A stretch of 64,000 nt of DNA from Amoebophrya sp. A120 (lineage: Eukaryota > Protista > Dinoflagellata). This document shows, one piece after another, positions 13,483 through 53,981 of this stretch. The notes under the pieces were generated by a model, which made no database searches, had not been told where the DNA came from, and saw only the letters and a program-made list of their open reading frames with translations. The stretch is taken from positions 2,313,331-2,377,330 of the forward strand of contig CAJINV010000011.1 of NCBI GenBank assembly GCA_905178155.1, in the 5' to 3' direction. Each line of letters starts with the position of its first letter. The first letter of the stretch is position 1. Made by a program: the position numbers and the translations under genes.

Positions 13483-16400
13483 ATGGATCTGCTTCACGAG
13501 ATGCGCAAGCACGCGGGGCCGCGGCTGACCGTGGGCTTGTATGACAGTGCACAACTACTCCCCCTCCCCCCCCATCTGTAAGTATAGTACGAACGGCTTT
13601 ACGAGCATCAGCAAGAGTGCCGGTTTTGCATGACAGATTTGCACTGGAGTGTAGTGCTATTTGGGGCATTAGATGAACTTGTGATGCATAATAGTGAAAG
13701 GAGGGAAAGCGTGGATTTGGTATTCTGCATGAGAAATGAGAACGAGGGGGAGTTGTGCATTGTCATAGCTTGCCCCAGGAGTACATCAAGAAATTTCTCG
13801 TGGAAGACCACCAACTCGTGCTGGCGATCCAGCACGCGCACGAGAAATGGAAACAATTAGATCCCGCGCAGACGTACCGGAAGCCGGAGGGGCAGCTGAT
13901 CGCGGAACTGCAACAGGGGTGGTGCCACCTGTACCCCGAGGACACGCGGAACCCCTACGTCCCGCTGGCCGCCAAGGGGCCCTGGATCGTCACCATGTAT
14001 GGGGCCGTGCTGCACGATAACGGCGGCTACGGCATGCTCGGATTCGGCCACTCCCCGGACGCGGTGATGAAGGCCATGTCCGAGGACGTGGTGATGGCCA
14101 ACATCATGACCCCGGCCCTTATGCATTGCAAAAGAATCGTATTGTAGTATGACTTGCATGACAAATTTTCTTAAGAACAAACACAAAGGTAACTGCTACA
14201 ATTTGGCATGCTAGTCCAGGTAGAAGATCGGGTTTGTGATGCATGATTTTGATTGCAAAAACCTCGTACTGCGACGGCGATACTTTTGCAATGCATAGCC
14301 CTGTATCAACTGTAAAAATGTCTGGGTCTGGAAGAATCCAACTTGTCATGCTGATTTTGGATTCCAAAAAAATCTGTATTGCATGAGCAGCAAAGCGAGT
14401 CCAAGTTTTGCTACACGGAAAGAGCATTTGTCATGCGGTATAGGCATCAGGAAGCCCTCACAAAATCTGTGATGCTAGGGCATGCATCACAGACATCAGG
14501 AGCCATGCAAAATGTGCATGACAAACCTGGAAATCTTCCAGACGCAGACATTTTTACATTTGATACCCTGGGGCAGAAACAGTTCATCGACGCGTTGCAC
14601 AAGGAGATCGGGTACCAAATGTAAAAGTGTCTGGGTCTGGAAGAATGCAACTTGTCATGCTAAATCTGAAGCATGCGAAAATCTGTGTTGCATGATTACC
14701 AAACGTCGTCCAGTTTTGACCAAGTCGGGAAGGACTTTCTCATGCAGGATAGGCATGAGAGAGATCGCGCAGAATCTGTCATGCTAGGTCCTGCATTCCA
14801 GACCTCATGGGTCATGGAAAAGCTGCATGACAAATCGCGCATTCTTCCAGACCCAGACACTTTTGCATTTGATATCGGGCACAACCGCCCGGACGGGTGC
14901 CCCTTCAGTGGGTTTCTTCTCATGAACTCCGGTTCGGAAGGGAATTCCGTCGCGGACCGGTTGATCGACATCCACACGGGGACCGTGATGGCCGAGCCGG
15001 AAAACCGAAATAAGAAGGTGAAGTGCGTCGCGCTGAAGGGCTGCTTCCACGGCCGGACCTACCGCCCCGCCCTGTGGACGGACGCCTGCCACGAGCGGTA
15101 CAGCTCGGCGGGGGTGTACTCGATCATGAAGTTATCCGAGAAAAAAACTGTGTTAGTGTAGGTGGCGTGAGGTGACAGCATGAGAAATCTGTTCTGCATG
15201 ACAGAAAAAGCATGTCATGCGCAGCTACTAAGTGAAAACACAAATGAAATAGGACTTCATGGTTGGCTAGCATGACAAGTCTAACAGTGTTGCATGCTTT
15301 GCATCACAGACTTACACTTACACAGTTTTTTTCTTGCATAGAAGTCCTACGAAGAGGAGTACTGCTGGATCTGCGAGGTGAACGACTGCGCCGACCTATT
15401 ACCATGAAAAATGCCCCCACCCCAATAAAAGTTGCAATAATTTGTGATGCGAAGTTTCCAAATGAAAACTTTTTGTCATGCATCAAAGGAATATGAGTCT
15501 TTTCTTAATCTTATCTTTTTGGTGCAGAGTCTAGGCGTATATAGCATTGCTTGCATGCGCATGGCAAGCGCCGCTCTTGCTGGGATCTGTTGCAATACAA
15601 ATCTTCGCTATTGACGATTGGAAATCTGTGATGCTGCTAGATGCAAGAGGGCGAGTGTTTCTGTTGGAAAGGTTTGCAATACAAATGCTCCCAAGTTCGG
15701 GGGTGGGGGCGTTTTTCATTGTGATACGACCTGCAGCGGCTGTTTGACAAGGCGGTGAAGGAGAATTGCTTCATCGAGGCGATGTTTGTCGAGTCCGTCA
15801 TGGGGGAGGGAAATCCCGGCGTGGCCATCACGGCGGAATTTTTCGCGAAGGCACGGGACTTAACCCTGAAACACAACTCCATGCTGCTTGTGGACAACAT
15901 TCAGGCCGGCATCCGCACGACGGGAAATCTTTCCATCGTGGACTACCCGGGCTTCGAAAAGATTCCCGGCCCGATATCCAAGAAAAAAACTGTGTTAGTG
16001 TAACTTTCTTTGGTTGCCAGCATCACAAATTTGCTCTACATGACCGAGAAAACCTGTCATGCGCGGCTTGTAAGGGAAAACACACATGAAAAGAGGACTT
16101 CATGGCTGTCGGGCATGACAGATGTAACTCTGTTGCATATTCTGCATTACAGAGTTACACTTACGCAGTTTTTTTCTTGCATATCCGGACTTCGAGGTGT
16201 ACAGCAAGGCGATTAACGCGGGCCAATACCCGGTCTATGCATTGCGAATATGTCTAGGTCTGGAAACTTGTGATGCTGAACTGTGCACGACTGAAATACT
16301 TCCCAAGGCAGCCAAGCATGACAAGGCTGCCGAACACTTTGCCATGCGCAGTCCGCATGACAAGCTGCGCTTTTATATGACACAAGAGGGCGTTTCATCG

Positions 16401-17876
16401 TTGGTCATGCAATACAGATCTTACAGGAATGTAGAACTGCATTACAAGGTCCATGGTTCCAGACCCAGACATTTTTGCAATGCATACGGTCTCCTGCCTC
16501 GCCATCTCCCCCCGCGCGCAGGCGTTCTACAAGCACGGGGTGTACGGAAACACGATGACGGGGAACCCGCGGGCGTGCTTGGTCGCCGCGGCGGTGCTGA
16601 ACAGCATCACGGAGCCGATGCGCAAGAACATCGTGCAGATGGGCAAATATGCAGTGGAAAAGTACAAGGAACTGCAAAAGGAGTTCCCAAATCTGATCAC
16701 AAACGTGACCGGCACCGGACTACTCTACGCGGTCCAGTTGAACGAGGCAATTTTCGCGGTGGTCGCCCGGGACGGGGCGGAGTACTGGCTGCGACAGCAG
16801 GGCCTGGGCGTGATCCACGGCGGACACAACGCGTTGCGGTTCACCCCGCGGTTCTGGATCACCAAGGCCGAAATCGACTTGCAGGTGGAGCTACGCATTG
16901 CAAATATGTTTGGATCTGAAAAGAATGGGACATGTGATGCTAACTTTGAATGATACAAGAACCTGTATTGCATGAATAGCAAAAGATTTGCGTAGATTTT
17001 TGCCACCCGGGGAGTGCATTTCTCATGCGGGACAGGCATTAGCAAGCCTTTGCGAGAGCTGTGACGCTAGAGCATGCATTACAGGGGTCGTGTCGCATGT
17101 ACTATTGTGCATGACAAACTCCCCCAATCTGGTGCCAGACCCAGAAAGATTTGCAATGCATAGAAGCTGGTCCGCGCGTTTTTGAAGCGGATGGACAGCG
17201 AGGCGGTGCGGCTGTTGGCACCGAGGTTGCAGAATTTGCGAATCGCGTCGTTGCGCGACATTTCCTCCACCGCGGCGGGGTCGTCCACCGGGGCCTCTTC
17301 CGGCGAGGAAACCTTCGGCGCCTTGCCGGACAGTGGGGACAGTAATAAGCCCCCGATGAAGTCAATTCAGCTGCTATCCTGAGTAAAAACGTACCCACAC
17401 CAGAGTCAGGATGGGGATTTTGCAACACAAACCTAGAAGCTTTGTGAGTCACGCATGACAAGTTGCAGTCCGTAAGGTAGTGCAAGTTAGCAAGGAAGGC
17501 CGCATCACAAATCGACCTGCTGATCCTGTTCACAGCATCACAAATTCCAAAACACGATTGGAAATGGCTCTCATGCGGATGCGCATTACAAGTCTTCCTG
17601 TCTTTGCAAATCTGCATTACAACTCTGGTGTGGGTACGTTTTTACTCAGGATAGCTGCAGCTCAAAGGGCACCTGTTCGACGAGAACATCATCAACGAGG
17701 TGCTCAACAAGGTGGAAAAGACCGAGGGCTCGGCGCGGATGCTCAGTTTGCGGTTGGGGGACAACGTGCGCGAGCAGTCGGAGGCGAAGTTGCAGGTGTT
17801 CACCCCGGCACCGCGGAAGAACGAGTTGCTGAAGCAACTGCAAGTGATGGAAAATTGCGAGATCACGTCGTCTTGA
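13483..17876 (+). CDS. lat: PLP-dependent class III aminotransferase, bacterial L-lysine 6-aminotransferase (LAT)-like, with a C-terminal LKR/SDH-interdomain (Saccharop_dh_N-like); 10 introner introns
   Basis: Spliced protein carries NPYVPLAAKGPW, LHDNGGYGMLGFGH, MANIMTP, NSGSEG, FHGRT, ESVMGEG, LLVDNIQAG, PDFEVYSKAINAGQYP (PLP lysine), YGNTMTGNP and LRFTP, then LKGHLFDENIINEVL. Confidence 0.85.
13540..13767. mobile_element. Introner, family F (TATGACAGTGCACAACT..CCCC TIR)
   Basis: DR GCTTG/GCTTG. Confidence 0.9.
14120..14297. mobile_element. Introner, family D
   Basis: TIR TATGCATTGCAAAAG; DR GCCCT/GCCCT. Confidence 0.9.
14304..14565. mobile_element. Introner, family A
   Basis: TIR TATCAACTGTAAAAATGTCTGGGTCTGGAAGA; DR CCCTG/CCCTG; inverted homolog of 27052-27313. 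Confidence 0.92.
14613..14874. mobile_element. Introner, family A
   Basis: DR TCGGG/TCGGG; near-identical to 56415-56726. Confidence 0.92.
15133..15340. mobile_element. Introner, family C
   Basis: TIR TATCCGAGAAAAAAACTGTG; DR GAAGT/GAAGT. Confidence 0.92.
15397..15726. mobile_element. Introner, family E
   Basis: DR CGACC/CGACC. Confidence 0.92.
15975..16183. mobile_element. Introner, family C
   Basis: DR CCCGA/TCCGG; removal gives PGPDFEVYSK. Confidence 0.88.
16236..16486. mobile_element. Introner, family A
   Basis: DR CGGTC/CGGTC. Confidence 0.92.
16892..17162. mobile_element. Introner, family A
   Basis: TAC start; DR GGAGC/GAAGC. Confidence 0.85.
17375..17653. mobile_element. Introner, family B
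   Basis: 29-bp perfect TIR TATCCTGAGTAAAAACGTACCCACACCAG; DR GCTGC/GCTGC. Confidence 0.95.
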
Positions 17877-18883
17877 TAGATCTGCAACTACGGGGTTTCG
17901 ATTTCATCTACTTTCTTATGCGGTTTTTGCTACACTCCGACCACGACGACCAGAAGTACCAACGAACTGGTTCAATAGGTTGTGTGTTTTCTTATCCTAA
18001 TCTTGTAAAAATTTAGTCAAAGAATGTTCTTCAGGATCATCTGTAAAATTGCTGCATGTCGATGCGCGGCAAGCACAGTAGACTGCAGAGTTTCACACAT
18101 GATTTTGCGTAATTGTAGTCTTTAACATATCAAAGCTTCTTCCTCGCTATTCTATACCGTTTTTCCCGCTCGACTAAAAGCAACTCTTCTAAGCGCTACC
18201 CTACCCGTGTACAGAGACTTTTTCAACCGCCCATTGTGCTTTTTGTAAGCACCTTTATTTGGACAGGCACTTCTTGCTGTCTTTGATTACCATCTGATCT
18301 TTCTCTTTTCATGGGAGGAGCGGCTTTAGCTAAAGTGTATCTCCTCGTCCGTCTATTTGGAGCAAATCTTCTCCGGTATTGCTTTTTTCCCTGTTTACGA
18401 TGAATCCAGAAAGACAAAGAATGAATTTAGACAGAACTTGGAACTTTTTCTTTTCAACACAAACTAGCACGGGAGTTTGGAAAAAAAAGCAATACTACAA
18501 CTTACACTTCTTGTTTGTAATTATGCAGTACGTTCTTCTTCATGTTCATCTTCAAGGAGCGGTAGCGGGGAGATACAAGCGAAGAATTTTTCCGCTCGAT
18601 TGCTAACATCTGTAGAGACGTTGGTTTTGGAAACTTCAGCTTTCTACCAAGGGACAAGAGGCACCGCGAATCGCTGGGGCAAGGAGGTTGCGAGGCCGAG
18701 AAAGCAGCGGTGTGTTCGCGCAAGTTTTTCCCTGACAAGATGATCCGTATTCGTAGGATCGGCAAAATGGATAGGATATTCACGAGGCAGAATTGGCCGC
18801 GTAGAAGTTGAGTCAGCTTCGGACCACCTTTGTTCTTTCTGAAAGGATCATTTTCACATACAAGAGATCAATGCGCAAAGATC

Positions 18884-21800
18884 ATGCCTAATAGACAAAA
18901 ACACCTGGTGGCACATCGGTCGCCAGTGGTGGTTGCGCAGGAGGATGAGCCGCAAGCTCTGTGCGCCCTCCGCGAGCATGTGCTGGGAACTATAACTACG
19001 CGGCATCTTCCAGGAGTTGTAGACGACCACAACGAGCGCGCACAGTTCGTGGCCGGGCTTCGGAAAACCTTGCTGCAGACGTTGCACGGGAACAAGAAAG
19101 CTACACAAGTTCCTTCCTCTCCTCGGTTTGTCGCTTCCGGCGCAGAGCTGACGGGTGGATCTTCATGCTTGTCCGAAGATGTCATCGCCTGGCTTTTCGC
19201 GCAACTCGGCGGCGGGAGGCCTGCCGAGGAGAAGCTACTGCTGCAGCACTGCTTGTTCAAACACCCAGTATCATTTTCGGCGTCAACTGCCAGCACGGCG
19301 TCTTCCACCAGAGCTACAGCCGGCAATAAAACCGGCGCCGCCGCCGCGGCACAAGAACAGCAGCAACACCAGACCCGAGTCGCTGTGCGACAGCGCGTTT
19401 ACGAGAATCTGCGATCGGACCTTTTACTTTATGAGGAGGAAGAGGAGGGGGAGACAGAAACGCGACTTGTGAGATATAATCTGCTCAGGTGTTACAATCT
19501 CAAACGTTACAATAGAATATGGAAATCTGTGATGCAAGAGTGCATGAGCTAGCCAACTCTCATAGGATTGCGCATGACAAGTTCCGGAGCTCCAAACCCC
19601 ACTACAATCTGGGAAAATTTGTATTGCAAAAGGTGGAACGCTGTGCGAGTCTGTCATGCCCATCATGCAACACAAATTCCAGATTCTATTGTAACGTTTG
19701 AGATTGTAACGCTTGAGCAGGTCATATGAGAAAGCTGCTCAAAGACAGCTACAGCGATGTACCTGCCACGCCGAAGATTGCTGCCTTGAGAAGCAGCAGT
19801 AGTAATCGCGGTGGTGCGATGAAAACTTTGGTCTCAGGAATAAGCGAGGATGAAATCAATCTGACATCTACTTCTTTTTCGTACGACGACATCCTGCACA
19901 CCACCATCGTTCGCTACCAGCTCTCGGAGCAGCTTGACGACTCGCAGCTTGTGGCTATGGAGCAGGGCTACTGGGAAGTTCTGGAGAGGCGAACCAGGAA
20001 ACAGGAGCTGTTCGGCAGTGCTGGGGCAGCAGCAAGAAATCGTGAGCCGTCATATGCGGGTAATCCTGCTTTTCTTCGCGAGCATAGTTCATCATCATCG
20101 CCCCTGCTTGTTGACCAGCAACAAGCACAAGGTCTAGTCGTGTCTGCACTAGCCGCGGTGCTGATCGGCAGCCCGACGAGGAGCCCAGCACACGGTGGCT
20201 CAGCGAAGCGTGAAGCTGCGGAATCGCTAGCACAGCTCGGCGGTATTTTGAAATCGGCCGCTTCGGTTCGCGTCCTATGATTAAGGAAAAAACTGTCTCT
20301 GTCTCAGGAGGGACAGCGCTGCAGATTCGCTCAGCATGACACGATGCGCAGTTTTTTAACAGGAACAAGAGTAGAAATAAACGCGTATACGGACAAGGTG
20401 TTTCTCTATCTCTTGCCTGTCATGCATGCCAGAAGCTTCTATCAACGAGTTGTTTGCGCATTAGATTATAACAGTTGAGCATGAGACAGTTTTTTGGCGC
20501 GATAGTTCTCTTGTGTTGTGCAATACTTACTTGCCGCGGACGAAATCTTAGAGCACGAAGAGGAGTTGCTGGCCTGCCTGGCAGAATTCATTTCCGAAGA
20601 TCGAAAAAACAAAAACTGCAAGAAAAGCCGGATTCCCACCACTACTTCAGAAGTGGTAGATCTGGAAACAGCGTTGACGGCGTTTTGCCGACGAGTCGTA
20701 ATTTCCAACTCGTCGTCAACATCCGCCGAACAGGACCAAGATCGGATCGCGACATCATCATCCTCAATCTTCGGCTGCTGCGGCAATTTGTCTGGATGGG
20801 CACAAAATCTGTTCTTCCGAAACGGTCTACCCATCGAAACCAGCGTTTACATGCTCGACCAGATTGCCGTCGCGTGGAAACTGATTTTCAGGACGAGAAC
20901 GAATCAAAACTACCTTCTCGCGTCTTTTCTCGAAGCTTATTTAGCAGCGCTGTTGCTGTTCGTGTTGCGGAAAGTGATCGCAGTCAGATCGTCTTCAAGA
21001 TCGACTGCTCACGATGCTGCACCCTTTCTCTCCGCAACTCCTAATGGGCTGTCTGCTAGTACAACAACTCCTTTAGCTTCGGAGGTGTGGGACTTTTTTC
21101 TCTCCTCCGCCACTTCATCAGCTGGGTCAATCGGCAACAAAAAGGCGCGGCACCACAAGACACAACTCGGGTTCTCTACCTGCACGGCCGCGAATTTTTT
21201 GCAATTGCTGAAGGACCTGCACGCCGATGAGTTTTTGCGGAAAGAGGTAAGGTACACTGTTTCATCCGATGAGGATGACACGAATTCTGGACAACTTGAC
21301 GACCCCACAACTAGCTCCGAGGAGCGTCTTCACGATTTTCTCGAGACTTATCGTATCCAGACCTCCGCCCGCCCGGTGCTGCGGCGGACACTGTCCGGAG
21401 AATTGCGGGGCCTTCTCCCCTTCGAGAGGCTCAGCGCTGCTGCCCAGCAAGAAGCGGTACAGGCACTGCAGGTGGTTGAGCAATCGAGGGTTGTGATGTC
21501 CACGCAGAAGAAAAAAAGCTTGCTTCGCTTCAACGAAGACGTGCTCTTCCGGCCGTTTCTCAGCCTGCCGCGTTTCCCAGAAGACACAGTCCAAGAGGTC
21601 GCGTTTTTTCTCATGTCGTGTCGGAATAATTTGACGCCCAGTGGGGAAACCATCGAGAGCAGGAGGGAAGCCCAAACTTTGGAGGCATACTGTGACAAGG
21701 TGAAAGCGAATCGCCTTCTTTCAGGTAGCCAATACACCTCCGAATCAGACCAGAAGAGGTTGTCACCACGAACGGCGTCAAAAAGCACCTTTCCAGCGCT

Positions 21801-22095
21801 AATCGACGACACGTTAGCAGGTCCACCGAAAGTTTTCACTGGTACAGTAGGCATTGCACGCTATGAATTCGCCGTCTCCTCGCTGTATTGCGGCTCTGAG
21901 TCAGAGTCAACACCTCCCAGAACCGACGACTGGCCTCCTGGAGGTGCTAGTAATAGTGCCGCAGCTCCAGCTCCACAGCTGCTGCGAGGTCTGTGGAGAA
22001 ATATTTTGCGTTTACAGTACGAGAATCCAGACCTGGAACACCACATTTTCGCGGACTGCGTTTTGCAGCTACGACGTAATTCTGCTCATGCATAA
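18884..22095 (+). CDS. Large hypothetical protein, 2 introner-derived introns; start uncertain
   Basis: ORFs 18830-, 19726- and 20518-22095 join in frame after removing 19475-19726 and 20272-20505. Confidence 0.65.
19475..19726. mobile_element. Introner, family G-related (GTTACAATCTCAAACGTTACAAT TIR)
   Basis: Long TIR; DR TGAGA/TGAGA. Confidence 0.9.
20276..20504. mobile_element. Degenerate introner, family C-like, now bounded by GT (20272) and AG (20505)
   Basis: Residual TIR GGAAAAAACTGTCTC / GAGACAGTTTTTT; diverged DR CGTCC/GTTCT. Confidence 0.7.
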
Positions 22096-22862
22096 ATAAT
22101 TCACACAGAAATCGAAATGTCTTATAAATATTAAGTTGTACTATTAACACCTTCACCTTGCACTTCGATGGCATCAACTTGCACTTGGACAACTTCATGT
22201 AGGCATCTATCATGTCGAGCGAAGCAAGAACGGAAAGCAAAAAGCACGAAGTGCAGAAAGAGCAAGCATAAAAGGATTGTTGTGAAGCAGTCCGCATGTA
22301 AAAGATTTCCATCTTCATTCAGCAGCGAATGTGAAAAATCGGTTTTTTTTTTCCGTGGTTGTCTCGTGACATCTGACACTGTAATCAAGAATAAGAAATG
22401 TCACTCACAGGAGACACAGGAGAGTGGAACAGGAGAAGTACTAGAATTGAAGCAGAAACAGCGCGCCACAACTCATTGTCATTGTTTAGCAGCACTACCT
22501 CGAGATGAGGATGAGAGAGCCTCACTCGTCACCAACATTTTTTTCTCTACTAATTTCACCAAATTACAGCAGCTCCAGAACAATCTGTGGTAAGGAATAA
22601 GAGCAGGGCACCAAGTTACTTCGAGGGCAGCTTTCCAGAAGCTTCTTCTTTCTCGTAATTATGGCAGAACTCCGCAGTAGACCAGCACTGTAACGAGATA
22701 AATCTAATCGATTGAAGGAACAGACCCAAACGTAAAAAACGAAGCTCTGTACTTCTAGTAAAGTAAAGGAGCTACAGGAACCATACTAAGAACAAGCCTC
22801 CCAACATTGCTCTACTGCCCAGCCTCAAGTAGTTTTACTTGAGCTTATAAATTCTCAACAAA

Positions 22863-24680
22863 ATGTCGGATAATCCCGTGTGGAAGGCTTTTAAGCCGTT
22901 CGTGACCGGTTCTATCTCCGGTTCCGTTGCGACATGCTGCATCCAGCCGATGGACATGGTGAAGGTAAGGATCCAAGTTGCCGCGGCCGAGGGAAAACCA
23001 ACCTCACCGGTAACGATTGCAACCACGCTGGTGAAGGAAGAGGGCTTCCTGGCGATGTACTCGGTAATAATACAACTTCAGGATCGATGGCTATGGCTTT
23101 AGTTTTGCTTCCTGGTTCTTGATGGTGCTGAAGGGAAAAAATGCAAAGCAATCGAACAGTCTTCACAATACCCGAAGTCGAATTTTGTTCATCACTGTAC
23201 AACAAGAAGAAAACCTCAACGTCAACAGGGTCTCTCGGCAGGGTTGACAAGGCAAGTCATATATACCGGGGCGCGACTGGGACTCTACGACATTTTCACA
23301 GACATGGTACTGATTTTTTTGCGACGAAGTGATTCTGCTCAACATGATTCGAGATGAACATATAAGTATGTAAGTAGTTCTAGGTCGTTCTGAGGTTTCG
23401 AAATGCATGCGTGGGACGTCGTCATTGATGTTTCGATATGCAGCATGTGTGAATGTGTACTATTTTAAAAACTGTTCTATACTTCAGGCAAAAACTCCGG
23501 GTGAGAAAACCTTTCCCATGTGGAAAACCGCCGCGTGCGCCCTGTCTGCCGGTGGTTATGCAAGAAAAACTGTGTATAGTGTAACTTTGTAATGCAGAAC
23601 ATGCAACAGAGTCGCACTTGTCGTGCGACACAGCCATGAACTTCTCGGTTCCTGTGTGTCTTCCCTTACAGGCCACGCATGACAGATTTTGTCTGTTGTG
23701 TAGAGCAAATTTGTAATGCTCTCGGCCAAAGAAAGTTACACTAACACAGTTTTTTTCTTGGATACTGGGATAGCAGCGGTAATTGGTAACCCAGCAGACC
23801 TGTCGTTGATCCGCATGCAGACGGACAGCATGCTCCCAAAAGCCGAACAGGTGGGCTACAGACACGCGGGACACGCTATGTCAAGTATTGCTTTGCTGGT
23901 TCTACTCAGATGTATTTTTTCCACGTGAAGATCGACACAATATTAAATACCTGTGATCTATTGCATGCAGATGAGTACCACCTCCACCTCCTAGATTATC
24001 CGTAGATCCAACATTTTTGCATGCCGTTGTGACCAGTTCAAGTTTAAAAAAAATTTTATTGCAATGGAATTACCTCTTCAAACAAGGTATTCTGAAAGGC
24101 GAGGGCTTCGTTGGTCTTTTCAAGGGCTCTGTGCCCACGAGCGTCCGCGCGATGGCGTTGAACTTGGGAATGCTCGGCGGAAACTCCGCGGCAAAAGATT
24201 TTTTGTCCGGATCGTTTGGACTGGAAAAGTCAGGGACAGCATGCGTGTTCGGGGCATCGGCGATCGCAGGCTTCTTCGCGTCGGCATTCTCATTGCCGTT
24301 TGGTACTAAGTTGTAAAATTTCAATGATTCTATGAATTGCAAAAGAAGTTGTATCGTACTACGTAGTAATTGCAATAAAAATTCGCTTAGCATGCTGATT
24401 TCCATGGCAACAAGATTTGTATTGTGCCTGACTGCAATGTCAATTAAATTTAAATCCAGATTTCGTGAAGACGCAAGTCCAGAAGGCCAAGCCGGATGCG
24501 AACGGCAAGATGCCCTTCAACGGCCCCATTGACTGCGCCATGAAGATGTTGGCCGAGGGCGGTCCACTGCGGTTCTACGCCGGATTCCCGACCTACTACT
24601 TCCGTATCGCGCCCCACGCGATGATCACGCTCATCGCCCAGGACAAGGTGAAGAAATTCTGGCAGAGCATCGGCGCGTAG
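22863..24680 (+). CDS. DTC: Mitochondrial dicarboxylate/tricarboxylate (2-oxoglutarate/malate) carrier; 4 GT-AG introns plus 1 introner
   Basis: PFVTGSISGSVATCCIQPMDMVKVRIQ, GNPADLSLIRMQ, SLPFDFVKTQVQK and GGPLRFYAGFPTYYFRIAPH. Introns 23064-23228, 23307-23487, 23885-24086, 24303-24459. Confidence 0.92.
23557..23764. mobile_element. Introner, family C
   Basis: DR GTGGT/CTGGG; inverted homolog of 15975-16183. Confidence 0.88.
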
Positions 24681-26113
24681 GCACGACTGATAAGTACTTA
24701 TATATTTTTTCACAACGACCCACAAGTAGCAAAGAATCTGAATAACTGTGAGCGCCAGTACTAAAGGTACTCTCAGTACACGCTGGTCGTATAATTTCTT
24801 TTTGCGATAGTACAACTTCTCATGCAGGATATTAACCGCGGCTAAAGCCGCGCCGCCCTGCTGTCATGCCGGCGGGAAGATCGCTTCTTTATCTTCCCAC
24901 TCCGGTCCGATAAGCACTACTAGCACGACCTACAACGGCACGCAAATACTATGCGGTTACAAGTATATGCTGAACATCATGCCAAACACGACACGGAAAT
25001 CGAATTACGATATGAATTCTTTCTGCAGATAATTTTTTTGTTATTTACTTTTTTCGACCAAGAACTTCCACTTCGGGATTAGTGTCGTCTCGGAAGTAGG
25101 AACCACGACGAAAAAGGAGCGGGTGGGAAAAAGGGATTATAGCCAAGAAACTTGATTACTATGATTTTCCATACCGTGTGCCGAAAAGGAATTCCCACAT
25201 CAGAAGTATCAAAGCGCCGTGTGTAATACCAAGAATCCTCCATCAAGTTCGATATACAGTTCCAGCCGCCTCTTAAAGGATGAGGCGGAGCGGTCATACA
25301 ACAAGACTTCGAATTTTAATAAGGGACGAATCACAGGGGCACCAGGATGCTCTTGGAAAAAATATAACGACAGAGAAAGAATCTACGCTGAAGAAATTTT
25401 TACCGCTCCACTTTGCACTTTGAGATCTTCATAGAGGTGCAGCCCTAGTGTGTGAAAAGGAACGTAAGATCAGTCCAAGTTGCAGTGGTCAACTTTTTCG
25501 CTGTGATAAGGAATGCAGCCATAAGCAGAACCATCTCTTAATTATATCACCGACCGTATCACTACCACCTAAAAATGAATCTAAGTGCGCAAGTATAAAG
25601 ATCCTTGTCCTGCTTGATCGGAATCATGATTTCTGTTCTCTGAAACCACCCAATGTCTGGATGATCGAAGTACAAGAAAGAAAACCGACTGAGATCCGCC
25701 TGTCAGCGAATAGCGCACATTGGATCCTGATCCTGCCTGGTTGCTTGAAGTGTCTGATCCGAACAAATCAATACGGTGTACTTCTCTCATCGTGGATCGA
25801 CTTAAAGAATTGATGCAAAGAGATCTGAAAGTCCGTATTTGCATATGATCAAAGCTTCTGAACGTGATCGTGCGTAGCTCGACACAGATTTAGCCCTGGT
25901 AGGCCACGTACAATCGATAACTTCATCAAAACAAAAGCAGGTGCATTATTTGCTGGTTCGGAATCTACTCTAAGTGAACTACCACTAGATTTGAGGTTTT
26001 TCATTGCTATACATCTAGCTGTGAGAAAGCCAAAGTAAAGACAAACTTATCAGAACATTACACGAAGTTTTATTTGTAAAGCCAGCAGTTCACACCAAGT
26101 TGTAGGCGTCAAA

Positions 26114-27595: not shown

Positions 27596-28655
27596 GTTTT
27601 GTGCTGCATGTACTCATAGAACCTGGACGAGACTAAAGCTAAACACGCTCATGATTTTCGCATCCAATTCATCAGAAGATCATGAATTTGGATCTTCTGA
27701 CGAGGAATCATCTCTGCCTGCAATTATGATCGAAGAAAACGCTGTAGTTGTTGCACTAGCAGCTTCCAAGAATAAAGATGTCGCGGAAAGAACAAGAACC
27801 TTCTGCACCATCTATCACGGTCGTTGTATTCTTTGCGCACGCTATGAGGAAAAACGTATAAAAATACAAAAACTGCTACAGACGTCGTGAACGTCTCACC
27901 GTCTTGAGTGGCGCTGCGTATCAAGCTATCATGTGTGGCTACATACACTCGCTGATGCTGTTCCTGTTGCTCCGTGTAGCAATATCGTGCTTGCAGTGTT
28001 GCAAGCTAGACCTACAGCTGCTGCTGTAGGTGTTTGTGGTGTTACGAGTGTGACGAGACCGGGTACAAAAAAAACGCATTCATCAAATGGTAAAACTCGT
28101 TTGAAAAATGTTCATCGGTATTAGTTGTGTTGTTTTTTGTCGTTGTGGCAGAACAAAAAATTGCAATTTTGAGGAACAAAAGTGCTAGTTAAGTACCAGC
28201 TTTGTCAGATTTTTTTTCACGTCCATGTATGTTGTCGTTCCTTCTTTCAGAATCCATCGCTGCTGTGTGATAAAGTTTCATGTGTAGGTGTACTAGTAGA
28301 AGCGCTCAGGCCTTTGCAGTGTGTGTAGAGCTACATCAAGTACAGGATACTTCCAAAAGTGCTGCTTCCGGTTCGCTTAAGCTCATGCTGTGAGCGTGAG
28401 ACTGACGGTATGGTCGTGGTGGCATCAGCTTTTGTGTGTAGAAGCTCAGATTTACTTATGAACCTGCCTTCTTAATATCGTGGCATCTTTCGATGAAATG
28501 TAGTGCTCCTGTACTGCTCGTGCTCCCTGCTTCAGTGGCGGTTCGACGGCGTGAAAATGAACCAAGCCTACCGAGAACGACCCTGAAGATCCTGAAGTTC
28601 TTGCCGCACTTGAACATAATTCCCAGTACCACCAACCCCGATAATCATCTTCACC

Positions 28656-40200: not shown

Positions 40201-43200
40201 GCAAGTGTATTAGATTCGAGAACACTCCTCCTTGACCACTTTCGAGAACTCTTGACGGCGCTTCATCTGTGTTCTTTCGAGATAAAATTCAATTGCCGCG
40301 ATGAATATACTTAATCACAAGTCCGAAAGAAGAACGCAACAACTCTTAACATCCACTTCAGGAGTACCTTTGGACGAAGAAGAACACAGTCGTCCAAGAG
40401 TGCCGTATTCCCGCCAGCACGTTTCTGAACCACGGCTTGTGCCAAGACCCAGTGCTCTACGACCTCTTCGCGGTCACCTCCAGTGGCGCCAAGACGCCGG
40501 TCCCGGTGCGCATGCTGAACACGGTCAGGGGGTCGACCAAGCCGAACGTGAACTTTGCCGAGGACCAGTTTTACGTCGACGGCTACAGTGGCTTCCTCGC
40601 CAAGCGGTTTTTTCTGTGCGACTCCGCCCTCGGGCGGACCAGCGACTTTTTGGGGATGAGCGACCCGGCGTATGTCCGGTACGCGGCCCAGGTTATCCTA
40701 TGTAAAAACGTCCCCACCCCATAGTCAAGATATTGCGAAATCTGCTAGACAAATCACTCAGCAAGCTTTGGGTGTAGCGCATGACAGATTTGGCCTCGTA
40801 GTGTAATCCTGTTTAGCTAGCTGAGCAGCGTCACAGATCTAGGACATCATGCTGGCTGGAGAGTGACAAACTTCGAAACACGACTAGAAAATGCCTCTCA
40901 TGGTGCTCCGCATGAGAAATATTTTCAGCATGCGCATTTGCATTACAACACTGGGGTGGGGACGCTTTTACTCAGGATACAGCTGTTTTTGCAGTTACGG
41001 GTGGACAGTGGGAGTCTGCAGGTGCCGGTCTTGAACATCGTCTACCTGGAAAGCACAGTGGCCGGGGGAAAGGACGCGTCGCTACCCTGCATCTTCAAGG
41101 CTGAGTATCAAATCTATCAATTATGCTGAGCGTGGTATCTGCGTTACCTTCTTGTTGTTGTTCATGAGAACGTCGTTGCGAACTTTTCGCTATTGTTTCT
41201 GTTTGTGTAGAATATTAACTCTACGTGTGCAGGAGCAGGTGCTGATATTTAGGATCTTTGTACGAACGAAAGCTGACAAAGCGACATTGTTCCCTATAAA
41301 TGAATTGAAGGTTCTCCGAGGATACCGCCGGATTCTGGAGCGCCGTCACGGTGTTTCTGATCCTCACGCTGATCCTCCTCCTTGGGCTGATCTACCTCCG
41401 TTACCGCTCCATTGAATTGCGCTACCCGTGGGAATCCGGTTTCGCGGCGGATCCGGGCCTGTTCATGGGAAAGAGCCTGCTGATGCTGTTGACGGTGGTG
41501 AAGATCTCGTTTGGCGTTTTGTTCTGGTTCCACTTTTTCATGGTGCTCTACTGGGTGGTGTCCGACGCCTACCTCTTACCCGGTTCGCTGGATGGCGACC
41601 AGTACAATCACCACGACGTCATGATGACGGTCTTGCTCGTGATGGCCTCCTATGCGTAAGAAAAAAATTTTTCTCGTACTTCTACAAGTAATTGTTCCAT
41701 GGCATGACAAATTTTTGCAGAAGCGAAAACGGCACAAGTGTTTTGTTGTCGTCGTGTGAGAGCAAGTACTTGCAAAGCACGTCCGGTACTGTAGTTTTTC
41801 CTCCATGGTATAATTGCAACAATTATTAGTTACGTGTAGTACGATAAAAATACGATGCTTTCGTCTTCCATACCACCGTCGTGATCCTCCTCTTCCTGTA
41901 CAAGCAGGCTTCCTGTTTCATTTTCCTCATAGATCGCGAGCCGAAGCCGCTGCAGGACGGCGCCTCCGGCGGGGCTAACAAAGACCAGAACGGAAACAAG
42001 GCACAGCAGAACAACCCAGCCGGGGGCGCAGATTTCGATCGCGAGCACGCGCCGGACAAGGGGATCTCGATCTGGCGGTCGCTGTTTGTCGGTACAAAAC
42101 ACAGTTCTTGTTGTCCATATCGGCGGCCTTGATGGACCTTGTTTTCTGTTTTTCCTACTTCGGAGCCTGGTGATCAATGTGTTTATTTTCTCATGACCTG
42201 CCGTGCACCATCGGGATCGGAGAAACGGAACAAACAGCTATTTTACGGGTTTGTTATACAGAAAATCCACCTATAGCTCGACTTCCCAAATATACTACAC
42301 TTCCAGGGAACGAACTTTCGGAGCGGATCGCCGCTACTAGAACGTCGGGATACGCTATGGAGGGAAAAGAGTTTGTCACAGTGACAGTCACTAAGCTGCA
42401 TAGTCGCGTGACAAATGTTTCTAGCGTCACAGCTTTGTTGTATTGCAGAAACACTAGGGAAATCCCGTATGAAGTTTCACTGTCATGCATGGTTACGCAT
42501 GACAAACATCTCATGGTTTTCTAAACCATTCCTTTCGATATTAAGATTGCAAAAATGCGCATGAGAAGTTAGTAATCGTGACGAACGTCTTTGGTTTGAT
42601 ATACGCCACCTGGATCCTGATGATCCTGTTCCTCCAGGGCTTCAATTGGGTTGACAGCTGTCGCTGGTCGGGCAGCGAGCAGAGCCCCTTTAATCCCTTT
42701 TTGATGTACGGAGTCACCGGCGGGACCTGGTTGCTCTCCGTCGCGATCCAGCTTGTCGGGCGCCATTTGATCGCCATGCGGGAGGGGCTATGCATGGCAA
42801 ATATGTCTGGAAGGTTGGAACTTGTAATGCTAGCCTTACATTCCTGTGAAATCTGTATTGCATCATGACCGGCAAAAGGTGTAGCCTCTCTTGTCATACA
42901 AAACCGCAGTTTCTGATGCGGAGTGCGTATGAGAAAGCGTTCCGCAAGACCTTTGTCATGGCTCCTTGCATGAGGAAGCGTTTTCATCATGCACATTTTA
43001 GCATCACAAATTTCCAGATCCAGACATATTTGCATTTGATAGGGGCTGGACCTGATCAACTTCGTCGATATCTGCAGTCTGGCAAACGTGTCCGTCTTCA
43101 TCATGGACGAACCCCATCACGGCTACTACATACACGGTGTCTTGAAGATCCTTTTATTTCCTTGCGCGACCGTGTTGTGCTTGTGGCAGCTGCTTTGAAG

Positions 43201-46200
43201 GAGCAAGTCGACATTGATTGATGTCGTCACAGTGTTCATGATTTTTCAAACACTGTGGTAATGATAAACATAAACGAACATCACAGGCAAAATATTGATA
43301 TTCTATTCACTCTAAAAATCTTCCAGGTCGTTGTCCCGGGGGTAAGGGTGACTGCTGCGCCACCGAGATGTCCTACACGCTCGATGAGGAGGCACGCGGG
43401 CTTCTCCCCAAGCGCGGCCTCACTCCGGACCACCCTTCGCGGGGCGAGTTGCAGACCTTCGAGGTGTTTACCCCGGGCGGGTTCAAGGAGCAGCTTTTCG
43501 GTCTGTACCGGCAGATCCTGGCCGAGCGCGGCGTCCCCGGCATGTTTGCGTCGCACTGGCACGGTGAGCACGACCAATTCGGCGGCCACCACATGGGTAT
43601 GCACTTTCCGGGCCACTTAGGCGGAGGCCAGCACCAGATGGGCATCGGGCAGACGCCGCGCGGATCCCAGATGCTCGGGCAGCAGCAGCTGGGGGGTATG
43701 GACCCGATGAGCAGCGGCCGACAGTCCCAGCTGATGAACAGCATGGGCGGCCAGCCGCAGCAGCAATTTGGCGGCTCCAGCGGCAGCAACAACTCTACTT
43801 TCGGGCAGCAGCAGCAGCAAAATGCGTTCGGGCAGCAGCAGCAGCAGTCATTCGGTGCACAACCAGGCTCCGCTTTCGGGCAACAGCAGCAGCAACCGCA
43901 AGCGTTTGGCCAGCAGTCGTCGTTCGGGCAGCAGCCGCAGGCGTTTGGAACTCCCGGATCGGCGTTCGGCGGGGGATTTGAAGGGGCACATCGGGCCGAA
44001 ATACCTGCTCCGACACCAACTTGCCGGTTCGAGCAGAAAGGCGGGAGCAGTAGCTCCACGTTTTATCGCAGCAGTAGTCGTTCTACTTTCGGGACAACTA
44101 GTACTGGAAGGAGAGCAGCGGCGCCGTGGTACCACCCCGGGAACTGGCTTCCTGGCCGGAAACGAAGCAGGTTTTTTTCTGGCGGAGTTGATGCGAGAGG
44201 TTTTTCTGCTCCGCCAGCAACAGTGTTGACGGGGAGCAACATAGCAGCCAACGCAAATACATGTGCGGCAGGAACAACGATGTTGAACCACGAGCTCCAT
44301 GCCCAGACAGACACTGTCATTTCTCCAGCGTACCAAGTAGACGAGCTACAGCACGGAAACTTTTCCAGTGTACGAAACCCGCACGCACGCCCAAGGATAC
44401 GAGACGAAGGCGAGATGACTGGTGGAGTAGAATCTCCTGTGGGTGTCGACGTCGCGGAGTTGGATTCGTCTCCAGAACTCCTGCCGTCGCGGTCCGGCGA
44501 AGACGAGACCGGTAGTAGTTGCCAACTTGTCTGGTCACACACGGCAAAAAGCGAAATAATCGAGTTGGAGCGAATATTGCACCAAGCCGATCTACAACAC
44601 GATGAACCGGCTGCAAATAACGAAGATACACATGAAGAGGGCCAGTACGACAGAAGATCATCCCACGTCGAAAAGAAGCGCAAAATATCAGACGAGAAAG
44701 TAGCGATAGTAGAAGCTTCTGCAAACGGCGTAGAGCCACGAACTGCAGCAGGTGAACTCATCGACTACGAGCTGCCGCAGCCCGAGGATCTCCACGTGGT
44801 AGGAAGTACTAAAACCGATGAGGATCATCTTCATCATGACCAACATCTCCAAGTAGAGGGCGCCCATTCGATGATGATGGACAATAACAATCGGAACTCC
44901 GGCATGAATCAGTTCCAAGGCTCGCTGAACCTCGGCAACCTGAACAACCAAGGCATGATGCCGCAAAATTCCGGGCGGGGTTCGCAGATGTCGGCTTTCG
45001 GCGGTCAGAACACGATGTCCATGTCCGGGGGGCCGCGGCCGTCCCAGGGGTCAATGCAGATCGGCTCGCAACAGTCCATGCCAAATGCGTTCGGCGGGGG
45101 AAATCAAATGCAGAACTCGATGATGCTCGGCGGAGGGAACGCTATGCACAACCATATGAAATTCAAACCGATAGAGAAGTTCGTCACGATCATCACTCAT
45201 GCGCATTTTCGCAAGACAAAATTGTCTGTCATGCGCAAAAATGCATCACAGTCAAATTCCAGAAGGCCGCTACTTCCTTTGTGCCTACGCAATTGACAAG
45301 AAAGAGCAAAAGCTGGGACGCAAGAAAAATTTGTCATGCAAATAAACCTGCAATCAAGTACTTTATGTAGTGACTCTGACGAACTTTTTTCTTCGTGATA
45401 AACCAGTTCAACCCCGGCGGAATGGGGGCGAGCATGTCGATGGGCGGTGGGCTCGGTGGCGGCGCGAGCAGCAGCGTGCGGAAACTGGCCCAGCTCCGGT
45501 ACCAAATGCAGGAAATGCTGCTGCAGTTGGTGGACGGGGTAGTGCGGGACCAGTCGATGTGCATCAAGGAGGAGATGTATCAGAGTGCCCAACTCCCCCT
45601 TCCCCTCATTTGTCATGCAAAATGCCACGTCTACCCTTTGCCCTCTGGCACCGGTTGCATGACAGGTTGCCGAAGCCGCAACAGCACTAGAATTTGCAGT
45701 GAATTTGTCATGCAAAAGCTGCATCTTTGCCAGCACTTGTGTTGCTGTGGATGCCATCCAAATGAGGCGGAGGAGGAGTTGCGCTCTCGTCATAAGATGG
45801 GTTCGATGTTTGGCGCGACGCCCGACGTGTCTGTGCCCACGTTCCCCCCGACGTTCTACGAAGATCCGTCGCACTTGCGGTGGACCAACGCGATGGCGTG
45901 TATGCATTGCAAAAGCAGCGTACTAAATAGAGATCACATGACAAATTTCGTCAAGAGGAAAATTGAAACTTGTCATGCAGAAGTAGGTATTAGAAAGTAC
46001 ATCTGTAATGCATGACTGCAATCAATAGTACGAGTACGGTACTTTTGCACGGGATAGCTTACGGGCCGGAGCTCCTCGGCGTGCCGACCGGATTCGAATG
46101 GCAGGTTTTGGTATTGGAGTACCTCATCTTCGTATCCAAGAAAAAAACTGTGTCAGTGTAAATCTGTGATGCAGAAAATGCAAAACAGTTACACTTGTCA

Positions 46201-49719: not shown

Positions 49720-50618
49720 TCGGACGGGTGGAGGATGGAAGCAGGGCGAGGACCGGAGCTTGCAAATAAAGACTAAGATCAATCTTGGAGAAGGAGAAGT
49801 ATCTCGGAAGTTCAAGTTTAAAAAATTAGTACCGGGTGGTGTGGTCACTCTCAAACACCTTTCTTCAACGAGTTGTAGTGACCACAAGACCTAGTATCAT
49901 TCTCGAAATGTTTCATGAGTACAGCGACCACGACAATTCTCTCTCGCAGTTGAGGCAACTGGTGAGTTGTTGCTTTTCCTACAAAACTGCTTCATCTCTA
50001 CAAATGAATCCGAAAGGAAGAAGTTTGAATCCATGCAAGGATCGACGTTAAAGCGTCACATTGAGACCTAATGCAGCGGCAAACGAAGCGCTGGTGCTGC
50101 TTGATGTTTCGTTTCGTACTGTCATTCATTCGAGTGTTCCAATTTACAACACCGCCCCCTCGCCACAATTTCTTGTAGTGCACAGCAACAGACCGAGTAG
50201 ACTGACATTGGTCGGTTGATGTCCAAGCATCTAATATGTTGGGAGTTTTGGGTGCTAGTGCTTTCTTGAAATCATCGCTCCTACCAACCTCGGTGTCGTG
50301 TCTCGATTCTGCTTTCGATCCAATTACTTACTCCTTCGTCTTTTAAAAGAAAGTCAAAGTCTATTACGTCATACAGAAGCACCACGACATGCGGGACGAA
50401 TTTTTCCTCGTCGCCTTGTCGGCAAAGCAACACGAGCGGCAGGAATGCGACAGCAGGTGCCCCGGCCCCGGCGACACGTGCGCTTAGTCGCGAGGGGGAC
50501 AGACTACCGAGGCAGCAGTACTACTAGGGCAGAAGGAGATCACAACGACCCGTCGCGCTCGCAAGGAGCTGCGCAGCGCCCCTATAATTGAAAGGCAGCA
50601 GAAGAAGATAACACGAGG

Positions 50619-53600
50619 ATGAGCAGCACTGCGAAGAAGAATGCGGAGTTGCAAGATTGGGTGGTGGAGGCGGGCGAGGTACAACTCGACTCGCCCGAGC
50701 CCGTGGAGGTCGTGCAAAAAGTGCGCGATTATGATGTCGGGACACCAGCTTCATTGGGAACAGCGCAAAATAGTCAAAATTCCTTCGGCCGTGGCGGCCC
50801 AGCTTCGTCTTCGACGGCAGAATATGACATGAACTGGGGTCCCGATTATCCTGCAACGCCGACGTCGCAAGCGGCTTCATTGCAGAGAGAAGCGCAGGAA
50901 CAACGTCAAGGTCAAACTCTGCACGGCGCTACGCCTACGCAAGAAGTGGAGTACCAAACGAGTGCTAGCAAAAGAGCGACTTCCTGGGACAGACCGAACG
51001 ACGTCTTGGCCACCTCTCGAAAGGATAGCATAATATCGTCTAGCCCCGCTGGTGGTGCTGCTTCCTCTATGAGTGGCCTAGTAACGTCTTCCAGCTTCAA
51101 TATTGACGACATGTTTGACGCCGCAGGTAGTTCTGCGCGCGGGCGAAATAAATCGCATTCAAATTCTTCCAAATCAGCACAGCCGCCACGGTCGGACAAT
51201 CCAGCCATCCTCACATCAGCCGGCGGAACCACAAGGGCAATTCCTGCTGTGCAGAAGTCCCGCCGCGAAGCGGATACCAAGGCGCTCGACGCAGTGTTTT
51301 TGAGCCGTCGAGAAAATGATGAGTCGATCGAGGTTGCTGGGGAGAAAAGAAATTATGTTGAGAAAGGAAGAGGACTACAGGAGCAACCCGCTCTACTGGA
51401 TCCAAGCCAAAATCACGGCGGAAACGGCACGCCGACAGGGTCAGCAAGAGACGAAATATCTCCTGGCCATGCCCGGAAGGGATCGGCAGGTGTAAAAATG
51501 GCAACAGCAGAATCAGGAGGTCACCAGCACCGGGGGGAGTTGCAGCAAGTAGCTCTGGATGCGAACAGGAACGAAAAAACACTGACACATGAAGAGCACG
51601 CCGCTGATGTGGATGTCGTGCCGAAAGGAGGATCAGAAATGCAGCAGCACGACCTCCTCGACGACAGGGGACAACTACACTCGAGTGTACAACGCACACA
51701 TACAGGAGTGGCAGCCCGGACGACCGGCGCAACTACATTTAGCGAACAACGTGCATCAACTGCTGACAAGACAAGGACAACTCTATCTCCGATCCTGTTG
51801 AACCCAGCAACAGTTGGAGCCCGCCCAGCTTCAGCGACCTTTGAGCAGCAGATAGAGCAGTATAGTGACCACGCGATGTTGTCCGCAACTTCAACATCAA
51901 CTACAACATTGCGCACGAAACACTATACCAGTGAAGAACAAGATTTTATTCGCGCCGGCAAAGGTGATCTCATGAATAAAGATCAGCGAGTGGACGAACT
52001 ACAAGCGGAAGAGCAGCTGTGGATCCTGGCCGACGATCCCATGCTCGAGGAAGAGCAGGGGCCGCTGCAGCCGAGTTTAGTGTTCCCCTCCGGCGTGGTG
52101 CCGGGAGGTGCAGCTGCCTCTTTGGGCGAGCAAACCACCGCAGCAAGCAGAGACGGATTTTTGGGGACGTCGACGGCGGAACAAAATGAAAATCATCAAG
52201 AAAGTGGTCTTCTTCTGGACAACAACAATCTTTTTGCGGGTCCTTTGCAGAAGTCGTCTGACCAACAAGGAGACCACGACAGATCACAGGATGAAGAACA
52301 AGAGGGAACAAGCAACAAGATGAGCAATCTGTACAATGCGGCGCAGCTGTACGCGGAATACAACCGAAATTTGGAGGTCTGGCGGATGCTGCTGATTGAC
52401 TTTTTCCGGTTCCGGCACAAGAACCCCGAGAAAGTGAAAGAGCTGGTCCGCCGCGGGCTGCCGGAGTGCCTGCGGGGCAGCATTTGGCAGAAGCTGGCGC
52501 AGAGCCGCGAGTTGCAGTGGAAGTACCCCCGGAACCTGTACGAGTACCTGAAGCAGGTCCCGAGCGCGCCGTGCGAACCCGACATCCGGCGGGACACGAA
52601 CCGCACCTTCCCCAAGCACGTGCTGTACTGCGACCGGCAGGGGGTGGGGCAGCAGCAGCTGCTCCACGTGCTCCGGGCCTACAGCATTTTCAATCCGGAG
52701 GTGGGGTACTGCCAGGGAATGGGCTTCATCGCGGGGCTCCTGCTCTGCTACCTGCCCGAGGAGGCGGCCTTCTTCATGCTCGTGTCGTTGCTGGAGAACT
52801 ACCGCATGAGCGGCCTGTTCAAACTATCCTGAGTAAAAATGGCTCCACACCAGGGTCAAGATAGGAAATCTGCTAGACAAATCAACCAGCATTGGTTGTG
52901 TCGCATGACAAGCTTGTCCTGGTTCTGAAGCATCACAGATCTAGCGCATCATGCTGCTTGTAGCATTACAAATTCCAAAGCACGAATAGAAAATGGCTCT
53001 CTTGGGGCTCCGCATGAGAAACCTTTTCGGCATGCAGATTTGCATGGCATCCACTCTGGGTGGGGACGTTGTTACTCAGGATACAAACCCAACCTTCCCC
53101 TGTTGAGCAAGTACTTTTTCCAGCTCAACCTGCTGATCCGGATGCACCTGCCCAAACTGCACGACCACCTGCAGCTGAACTCGGTGGAGCCCACCATGTA
53201 TGCCTCACAGTGGTTCATGACGGTCTGCATCTACCAGTTTCGGTACTCGACGGTTTGTCGCGTGTGGGACATCTTCCTGGCCGAGGGCGTGAAGATCATT
53301 TTCCGGGTGGTATCAGAGTGCACAAGTAGAACTTCCCCTCGCCCTCATTTCTCATGCAAAATGCCAGGCCGACCATTTTTCTTTTTGTTTTTTGCCTCTT
53401 CGCACTCTTAGCATGACAGGTTCTGCTGGCAGCACTACAATCCTGATGAATTTGTCATGCGAAACCTGCTCAACTCTTGCCAACGCTGGTATTGCCATTG
53501 CTGTTCACACTATAAATATAAATGAGGGACGAGAGCAGGGGTGGGGAGTTGTGCACTCGGATAGGTGGCGCTGGCGCTGCTGAAGCTGAACCAGGAGAGC

Positions 53601-53981
53601 CTGCTGCAGTGCGGGTTCGAGGACATTTATCGCAAGAAAAAAGTGTTTACAGTTTTTACACATTGTGTTGCGGGGGCCGCAAGACAGACGACCTTTGTCA
53701 TGCAGGAAATACCTGCAAGCCTCGTTTCCTTCGTATTTTCCCTTATGTATGATCTTTGCCTTACTCTGCCACACTGAGAAAATTTGTGATGCAGATGAAC
53801 AAACTCCAACAAATGTGTAAGTGCAACACTTTTTTCTTGGGATAGCATTCTGCAGGTACTCAAGCTCGCCCCGGCCCAGACGGAAACGGAGCTGCTCATC
53901 CAGACCGCGCTGGGCATCAAGCTGAAAGCCTCCGTGCTCAAGGACCTCGAGCAGGAATTTTTGAAATCCGGACAGAAGTAA
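50619..53981 (+). CDS. TBC-domain Rab GTPase-activating protein (EVI5-like) with a long disordered N-terminus; 3 introners
   Basis: LVRRGLPECLRGSIW, IRRDTNRTFPKH, VGYCQGMGF, YASQWFMT, RVWDIFLAEGVKIIFRVALALL. Confidence 0.92.
52825..53083. mobile_element. Introner, family B
   Basis: DR CAAAC/CAAAC. Confidence 0.9.
53311..53563. mobile_element. Introner, family F
   Basis: DR GGTGG/GGTGG. Confidence 0.9.
53628..53844. mobile_element. Introner, family C
   Basis: DR ACATT/GCATT. Confidence 0.88.

Follow-up and report, generated by a model that had tools for sequence, protein, structure and literature searches.

The window analysed here, a stretch of 64,000 nucleotides (nt) from the marine parasitic dinoflagellate Amoebophrya sp. 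A120 (GenBank assembly GCA_905178155.1, contig CAJINV010000011.1, positions 2,313,331 to 2,377,330 of the forward strand), carries 51 short elements with terminal inverted repeats, and this report concerns the exact positions at which such elements are cut from transcripts. They extend over positions 5335–63739, all within genes on the + strand, and are 143–411 nt long (median 256 nt) when measured at the cut described below. The set was hand-curated out of three paired-end scans and its members are bounded by TAT (TAC in three) on the left and by ATA (ACA in one) on the right. Among the host genes, those for a class III aminotransferase, a mitochondrial carrier, a TBC RabGAP and meckelin had been correctly named in a preliminary description of the sequence, as their Pfam matches show; the Pfam matches of the hosts all fall on the + strand and no element was found in a minus-strand gene anywhere in the window. 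Removal of an element together with 5 nt opens the frames of the aminotransferase (621 amino acids) and the TBC protein (881 amino acids). More than 60% of the introns in two Amoebophrya strains have been reported to lack GT-AG boundaries (PMC7789003).

Five-nucleotide direct repeats flank the elements, perfect in 31 of the 51 and matching at 4 or more of the 5 positions in 43, where 20,000 shuffles produced maxima of 6 and 9, respectively. At length 5 the repeats have an identity of 0.86, compared with 0.23–0.33 at lengths 2–4 and 6–9, such that length 5 alone stands out, and the composition of the repeats is unbiased. The terminal inverted repeats open with TAT, followed about 11–15 nt inward by a run of A (column counts over 78 ends). 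The variant ends, three left TAC and one right ACA, occur at 14613, 16892, 38576 and 39229, and no left TGT or right GTA ends were found although the element search of the window permitted them; small as they are, these numbers agree with the constraint lying in the 5' TA. The elements fall into families, with pairs showing 68–96% identity in both orientations. Those at 15133 and 23557, for example, are relatives in opposite orientation (71% identity over 142 nt) and transcript contigs skip both. Similar features have been described for the introner elements of strain A120 (PMC7789003), including inverted repeats starting from TAT, with about seven loose bases and then an A run, direct repeats of 3–5 nt at the junctions, a length of about 240 nt, repeated families and RNA-supported removal. 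Judged by their termini, repeats, length and repetition, the 51 elements belong to this known class. The difference lies in the cut, whose position relative to the hairpin is left variable in the legends to Figures 3 and S23 of the published account (1–5 nt in the latter).

The cut can be expressed as k, the count of left-repeat bases retained in the mRNA. The preliminary description had placed it at k=1, reading the intron as NNNN-TAT...ATA-N, while the mirror arrangement, with cuts 1 nt upstream of TAT and 4 nt downstream of ATA, corresponds to k=4 and is termed the 1+4 cut below. Transcript data were provided by four contig sets (X1–X4), all from one sample of a single study carrying the same species label and presumed to be RNA, and they were aligned to positions 5000–24900 (15 of 31 joints listed) and 56900–64000 (12 joints). 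Two of the latter joints (61797->62791 and 62661->62801) were excluded because they lie inside related repeat copies, and the contigs of that region gave no joint for the element at 59893–60171. Two raw RNA runs, X8 and X9, yielded 5 and 0 reads over 5000–24900. In total, the joints and contig pieces listed inform on 11 of the 20 elements with imperfect repeats.

Every joint that crosses a single element (15 of 15) skips the element plus 5 nt. Among the nine directly read informative elements, all are compatible with k=4 and four with k=1; with two indirectly read elements added, k=4 accounts for all 11, k=3 and k=5 for seven each, and k=1 again for four. If cuts fell at random, the chance of any single register fitting all of them would be at most 0.0024 for the 11 elements and at most 0.014 for the nine direct ones. 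Seven elements are able to separate k=1 from k=4 and, across differing arm sequences, all seven side with k=4. The same contigs remove seven ordinary GT..AG introns on the + strand, and a single contig lacks eight successive elements. Moreover, the spliced region 60560–63900 is free of stops in one + frame only, and the direction of the introns is therefore not reversed. We are left with little doubt that the intron has the form N-TAT...ATA-NNNN, the mirror of what had been claimed. A cut at fixed distance from the hairpin, requiring neither GT/AG nor a matching repeat, is supported by these data.

The most decisive element lies at 63329–63739, where the flanks AATGT and TTCCA are alike at 0 of 5 positions and the intron ends are TT..CC; the joint 63328->63740, present in X1, X2 and X4, sets k unambiguously at exactly 4. 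That it is nevertheless cut at 1+4 shows that the repeats need not match. At 61024–61381 (CGGTC/CGGGC; joint 61023->61382) and 61730–61970 (ACGGA/ACGTA; 61729->61971), both read from X1, the range is k=4–5, and it widens to k=3–5 at 62914–63162 (GAAGG/GTCGG; 62912->63162; X1, X2 and X4) and to k=2–5 at 10547–10755 (TTTCA/CATCA; 10544->10754; X1 and X2), an element of a gene with SHIPPO repeats identified by Pfam. The two indirect readings, both from X1 and X2, concern the element at 20275–20508 (flanks CGTCC/GTTCT), for which contig pieces start at 20507 (k=2–4), and that at 8306–8490 (GTGGC/GTGTC), for which a piece covering 8487–8649 with one differing letter gives k=4–5; the one-letter pattern of this piece matches that of an X4 piece at 61967–62044, where the joint is known. 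The remaining joints over imperfect repeats are compatible with both registers and belong to the element of the carrier gene (Pfam Mito_carr) at 23556–23768 (GTGGT/CTGGG; 23552->23766; k=1–4; X1 and X2), and to those at 57324–57688 (GCGAG/CCGAG; 57320->57686; k=1–5; X1) and 62345–62618 (TTGTG/CTGTG). The last is followed by an 11-nt exon and is read from a two-element joint, 62345->62859 with GGCAGC between, in X1 and X4 (k=1–5). The element at 58140–58332 (GGCAT/GGCAG; joint 58135->58329; X2) gives k=0–4, which neither supports nor rules out a GC..AG reading of its ends.

Further information comes from two adjoining elements, 14119–14301 and 14303–14569, which enclose a 1-nt exon. In RNA the stretch skipped here amounts to 450 nt (joint 14115->14566), as expected for two separate removals, whereas one removal at the outer ends would skip 451 nt; this points to each intron being recognised on its own. 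Micro-exons of 1, 11, 17 and 26 nt occur between neighbouring elements (14302, 62619–62629, 8289–8305 and 61704–61729, respectively) and all four are correctly bridged by the transcript contigs.

The diverged repeats from which k=1 had been deduced are present in the sequence: GTGGT-TAT at 23552 with ATA-CTGGG (ATA at 23762–23764), ACATT at 53623 with ATA-GCATT (53842), CCCGA at 15970 with ATA-TCCGG (16181) and GCGTG at 45896 with ATA-GCTTA (46054). The peptides said to localise the cut at these junctions are less specific than had been supposed. When k is varied from 0 to 5, AGG of the carrier and FEDIL of the TBC protein are each obtained at k=1–5, and PD of the aminotransferase and AYGPE of meckelin each at k=0–4, and jointly they bound the cut only to k=1–4. 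A protein-level check of the register, comparing the meckelin exon with database proteins, gave no match among 413 candidates. Among the joints listed, the carrier element is the one of the four that is represented; for the others the 1+4 rule predicts introns at 15974–16187 (aminotransferase gene, Aminotran_3), 45900–46060 (meckelin gene, with the Pfam Meckelin match upstream) and 53627–53848 (TBC gene, RabGAP-TBC). Reading of complementary DNA (cDNA) across imperfect repeats had been named as the observation that could overturn k=1, and the contigs follow the mirror register. A profile of mismatches along the repeat is flat (9, 7, 5, 7 and 7 at the five positions, for the elements of the window) and is blind to register, because in any register one copy of each position is exonic and the other intronic.

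The same description had also drawn support from GT..AG at 53307–53564 and 20272–20505 and from GC..AG at 58137–58329. These dinucleotides are present, and the three cases, which were what had singled out k=1, compare with 2.2 expected by chance. That at 20272–20505 is passed over as an intron by the contigs that start at 20507, and the element at 53310–53567, with its perfect repeat GGTGG, offers GT..AG at k=1 and GT..TG at k=4, which RNA is unable to separate. Over all 51 elements there is no excess of GT..AG at any register (0, 2, 0, 1, 1 and 0 cases for k=0–5), and GY..AG is available at some slide in only five. The element at 40693–40983 (CAGGT/CAGCT) offers GT..AG at k=3, while that at 9095–9413, with the perfect repeat CGAGG and the joint 9090->9410, shows it at the 1+4 cut. 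For a further element with unlike flanks, GCAAG/AGCTC (0 of 5), the 1+4 rule places the intron at 5759–5975 and predicts the peptide WSNLHK.

When the 51 elements are aligned at k=4, intron positions +2/+3 are T and A throughout, in part by selection, and +4 is T in 48 and C in 3. Positions +1 and -4 to -1 are near background and neither flanking exon base is constrained, the first downstream exon base being G in 15, A in 11, C in 16 and T in 9. The GT (or GC) and AG that characterise U2-type introns are mostly lacking, with GT at +1/+2 in 14 elements, AG at -2/-1 in four and both together in one, and the elements are removed from RNA with non-GT-AG ends. T is found at positions -19 to -15 in 65–88%, yet this tract mirrors the 5' A run and is predicted to be paired. 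The RNA-supported ordinary donors of the window read GTA in 7 of 7 cases, and GTAC or GTAT in five; since the elements carry TA at +2/+3, they resemble a donor with an unconstrained first base at their 5' end, and their 3' end has no consensus. Pairing of the ends is predicted for 50 of the 51 elements, with a median pair probability of about 0.9 for TAT/ATA, and the predicted fold of 61730–61970 (z -9.4) leaves one unpaired base 5' and four unpaired bases 3' of the stem. The earlier proposal that cuts are set by distance from the stem rather than by dinucleotides is thereby borne out in part: the joints support a fixed distance but in the other register, and independence from sequence holds at the 3' end and only by half at the 5' end, where TA at +2/+3 resembles that of ordinary donors.

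Two observations on ordinary introns may be added here. The RNA-supported GT..AG intron at 10790–10992 starts with G-TAT, and five bases before its AG lies a right end like that of an element (ATA at 10985–10987); the intron is possibly a decayed element that turned into an ordinary one. An element-like left end (score 15.3) also occurs at 24331, inside the ordinary GT..AG intron 24303–24459 of the carrier gene.

The following scheme would accommodate these results, and we consider it somewhat more probable than its competitors taken together: transposon-derived hairpin inserts are removed at 1+4, most likely by a relaxed spliceosome. A non-autonomous transposon with terminal inverted repeats would insert and leave a 5-bp target duplication, this being the origin that the termini and repeats suggest. 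In the transcript, the hairpin would form in vivo and bring the intron ends together, as the folding predictions imply, thereby standing in for U1 and for recognition of AG; a relaxed U2-type spliceosome would read the UA of the hairpin as donor positions +2/+3, and the 3' cut would be placed by distance from the hairpin. That distance sets the 3' cut is, in our judgement, probable; that a relaxed spliceosome does the cutting is favoured by a narrower measure. Since the 1 and 4 nt of the cut add up to the length of the 5-bp duplication, exactly one repeat copy would be taken out in either orientation, and the host sequence would be restored exactly wherever an element has inserted. The rule can thus account for entry of transposons at any exon position without cost to the protein, and exact restoration would explain why coding exons are filled by unrelated families that share their termini. 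Later, each repeat base would be free to drift in its intronic copy, which is what made the test of the register possible.

The spliceosome is favoured because nearly all spliceosomal proteins are present in both Amoebophrya strains while U1 small nuclear RNA was not found (Farhat 2021, PMC7789003), because T occupies +2 in 9 of 9 of the top non-canonical intron types of A120 and because of the starts seen in strain A25. There, 9 of 9 top types start with TT and the inverted repeats start with TTA (PMC7789003), which by analogy would again give TA at +2/+3, at another distance from the stem. A relative with ordinary introns retains U1 (PMC12005148).

Several points weigh against the scheme or against the firmness of its parts. 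The elements lack G at +1, AG is rare and the folding predictions place the donor-like bases inside the stem; moreover, selection on TAT and ATA ends renders the invariance of TA partly circular. The most decisive element, 63329–63739, folds weakly (z -1.7), with TAT/ATA paired in the centroid and unpaired in the minimum-energy structure, and a strong stem acting as a ruler is therefore not proven. It is also the only element that fixes k by itself, and the coverage of imperfect repeats is partial. Contigs lose rare forms and the four sets represent one sample, such that minor registers would be missed. In the published data, A occurs at -2 in 8 of 9 top A120 types (PMC7789003), the pattern expected from the k=1 register, and Dataset S2 of PMC12130899 shows, over the 19 of its 58 A120 rows examined, an excess of gt/at at 5' ends and of ag/ac at 3' ends; its mechanism calls are inconsistent and its repeat lengths range over 2–5. 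The published mix of T at +2 and A at -2 may represent two mirror registers, arising from strand mixing, sliding by the aligner or a real second class, no member of which was found among the elements of this window.

The strongest competitor retains the 1+4 register and dispenses with the spliceosome; a structure-guided endonuclease would make a staggered cut at the base of the hairpin and a ligase would join the exons, in a convergence on the Euglena system. The spliceosome normally docks the 3' splice site through positions +1, -1 and -2, and the elements carry no information there. Related copies are spliced in both orientations, the 1-nt exon survives between its two elements, the GT..AG available at 20272–20505 is ignored and the donor-like bases are predicted to be paired, all of which would suit such an enzyme. 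In addition, the nonconventional introns of Euglena need fixed spacers of 3 and 5 nt, and their authors suspect non-spliceosomal factors (PMC12501133). On the other hand, TA at +2/+3 copies the ordinary donor, and the three TAC left ends resemble GTAC donors while breaking one pair of the stem, the one at 14613 being skipped nevertheless. No enzyme of this kind came to light, though no search was directed at one. We therefore regard removal by a cutter and ligase as a serious but less likely possibility. It is equally tentative to suppose that this parasite lineage has a second, hairpin-measuring splicing machine, which would cut 1 nt upstream and 4 nt downstream of a UAU/AUA stem and make no use of splice-site sequence; if real, it would have evolved apart from the Euglena system and be matched to a 5-bp transposon footprint, erasing insertions in either orientation.

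Next, 1+4 might be only the main form of a register that varies by family, by orientation or with the availability of GT/AG, as a figure legend of Farhat 2021 (PMC7789003) states and as is seen among the introner classes of Polarella. This is improbable for the elements studied here, where none of the 11 needs another k and the discriminating ones agree on k=4. Much less probable still is the idea that the joined contigs represent DNA alleles free of elements: X1–X4 are only presumed to be RNA, but they also skip ordinary GT..AG introns, eight elements are missing in a row from one contig, and each junction combines bases of the left flank with bases of the right. Finally, the k=1 register has in its favour the three GY..AG coincidences and the A that it would always put at -2, as in most of the top A120 types, but it fails at five direct and two indirect elements, its GY..AG count is at chance and no strand flip can rescue it because the genes lie on the + strand by their GT..AG introns, Pfam matches and stop-free frame, and we consider it almost certainly wrong.

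Among known systems, a parallel to the preferred reading, of removal at a fixed 1+4 distance, is provided by the nonconventional introns of Euglena (Nomura et al. 2025, PMC12501133; reviewed in PMC11282704), an unrelated lineage. These also have paired terminal triplets and fixed unequal spacers, longer at the 3' end, demonstrated by knock-in for the 3- and 5-nt spacers around paired CAG/CTG (PMC12501133); their flanking direct repeats blur the junction, which was resolved through non-slidable junctions, and an origin from miniature inverted-repeat transposable elements (MITEs) is suspected. They differ in their triplets and spacing, CAG at +4 to +6 and CTG at -8 to -6 with 3/5 spacers, as against TAT at +2 to +4 and ATA at -7 to -5 with 1/4 spacers here, and they require a purine at the next exon base, which is present in only 26 of our 51 elements. 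Excised circles have been demonstrated in Euglena, whereas contigs alone were examined here. By analogy, the Amoebophrya elements appear to work like the Euglena spacer code without being members of that family.

The introners of Polarella, Symbiodinium and Aureococcus (bioRxiv 10.1101/2020.10.14.339549; PMC9860276) similarly consist of elements with terminal inverted repeats and target duplications; they turn into introns, in some cases whichever way they are oriented, and leave the mRNA unchanged. They carry or recruit GY/GA and AG, in contrast to the unbiased target of the present elements and their single GT..AG pair. In Fritillaria, transposon-derived introns also lack GT/AG and are processed by an altered U2 spliceosome (PMC11282704, PMC13326754), but their dominant AG-AC and AG-AT ends keep A at -2, whereas the present elements have a free 3' dinucleotide and fixed bases at +2/+3. 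No fixed register for the Amoebophrya elements was found in the text of introner and splicing reviews, surveys, the Polarella preprint and papers on diplonemids and tunicates, with figures, subscription papers and theses outside the scope, and the preprint of Roy et al. 2023 contains no mention of Amoebophrya. The fixed 1+4 rule appears not to be in print.

The describing paper, in its available text, could not place the cuts (PMC7789003), and a fixed 1+4 rule makes the mode of removal testable, as it tells where lariats or circles should be sought. It leaves a 5' end that is still donor-like, with UA at +2/+3, and a 3' end without a sequence signal, and it has its counterpart in the spacer code of the unrelated Euglena. 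Gene models are corrected by it wherever the repeats are mismatched.

An 8-base motif, GCA[TA]NACA or its reverse complement, is present within 49 of the 51 elements (5336–63735), with 171 copies in the 12,714 nt of elements and 8 in the remaining 51,286 nt. It occurs in both orientations, is common to families that cannot otherwise be aligned, and its outermost copy facing each end sits at least 40 nt from the cut. It could be a site for a transposase or a splicing factor; a role as a general branch point is not favoured, there being one match, in reverse orientation, among the seven RNA-supported ordinary introns. A further element begins at 63911 and is cut by the end of the window (63911–64000).

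Repeats of other kinds are also present. A WD40-domain gene, which we take to be katanin p80-like, contains an exact 42-nt repeat (30521 and 31745), which takes in an intron acceptor and brackets a 1.2-kb block (30521–31786) with internal tandem repeats, probably an insertion or duplication of a different kind. The same gene is interrupted at 32640–33330 by an insert that contains short tandem repeats, has its ends inverted (32677/33310) and lacks the 5-nt repeat. Finally, an intergenic block at 12540–13330, spotted by eye between inverted purine-rich and pyrimidine-rich repeats, is possibly another MITE.

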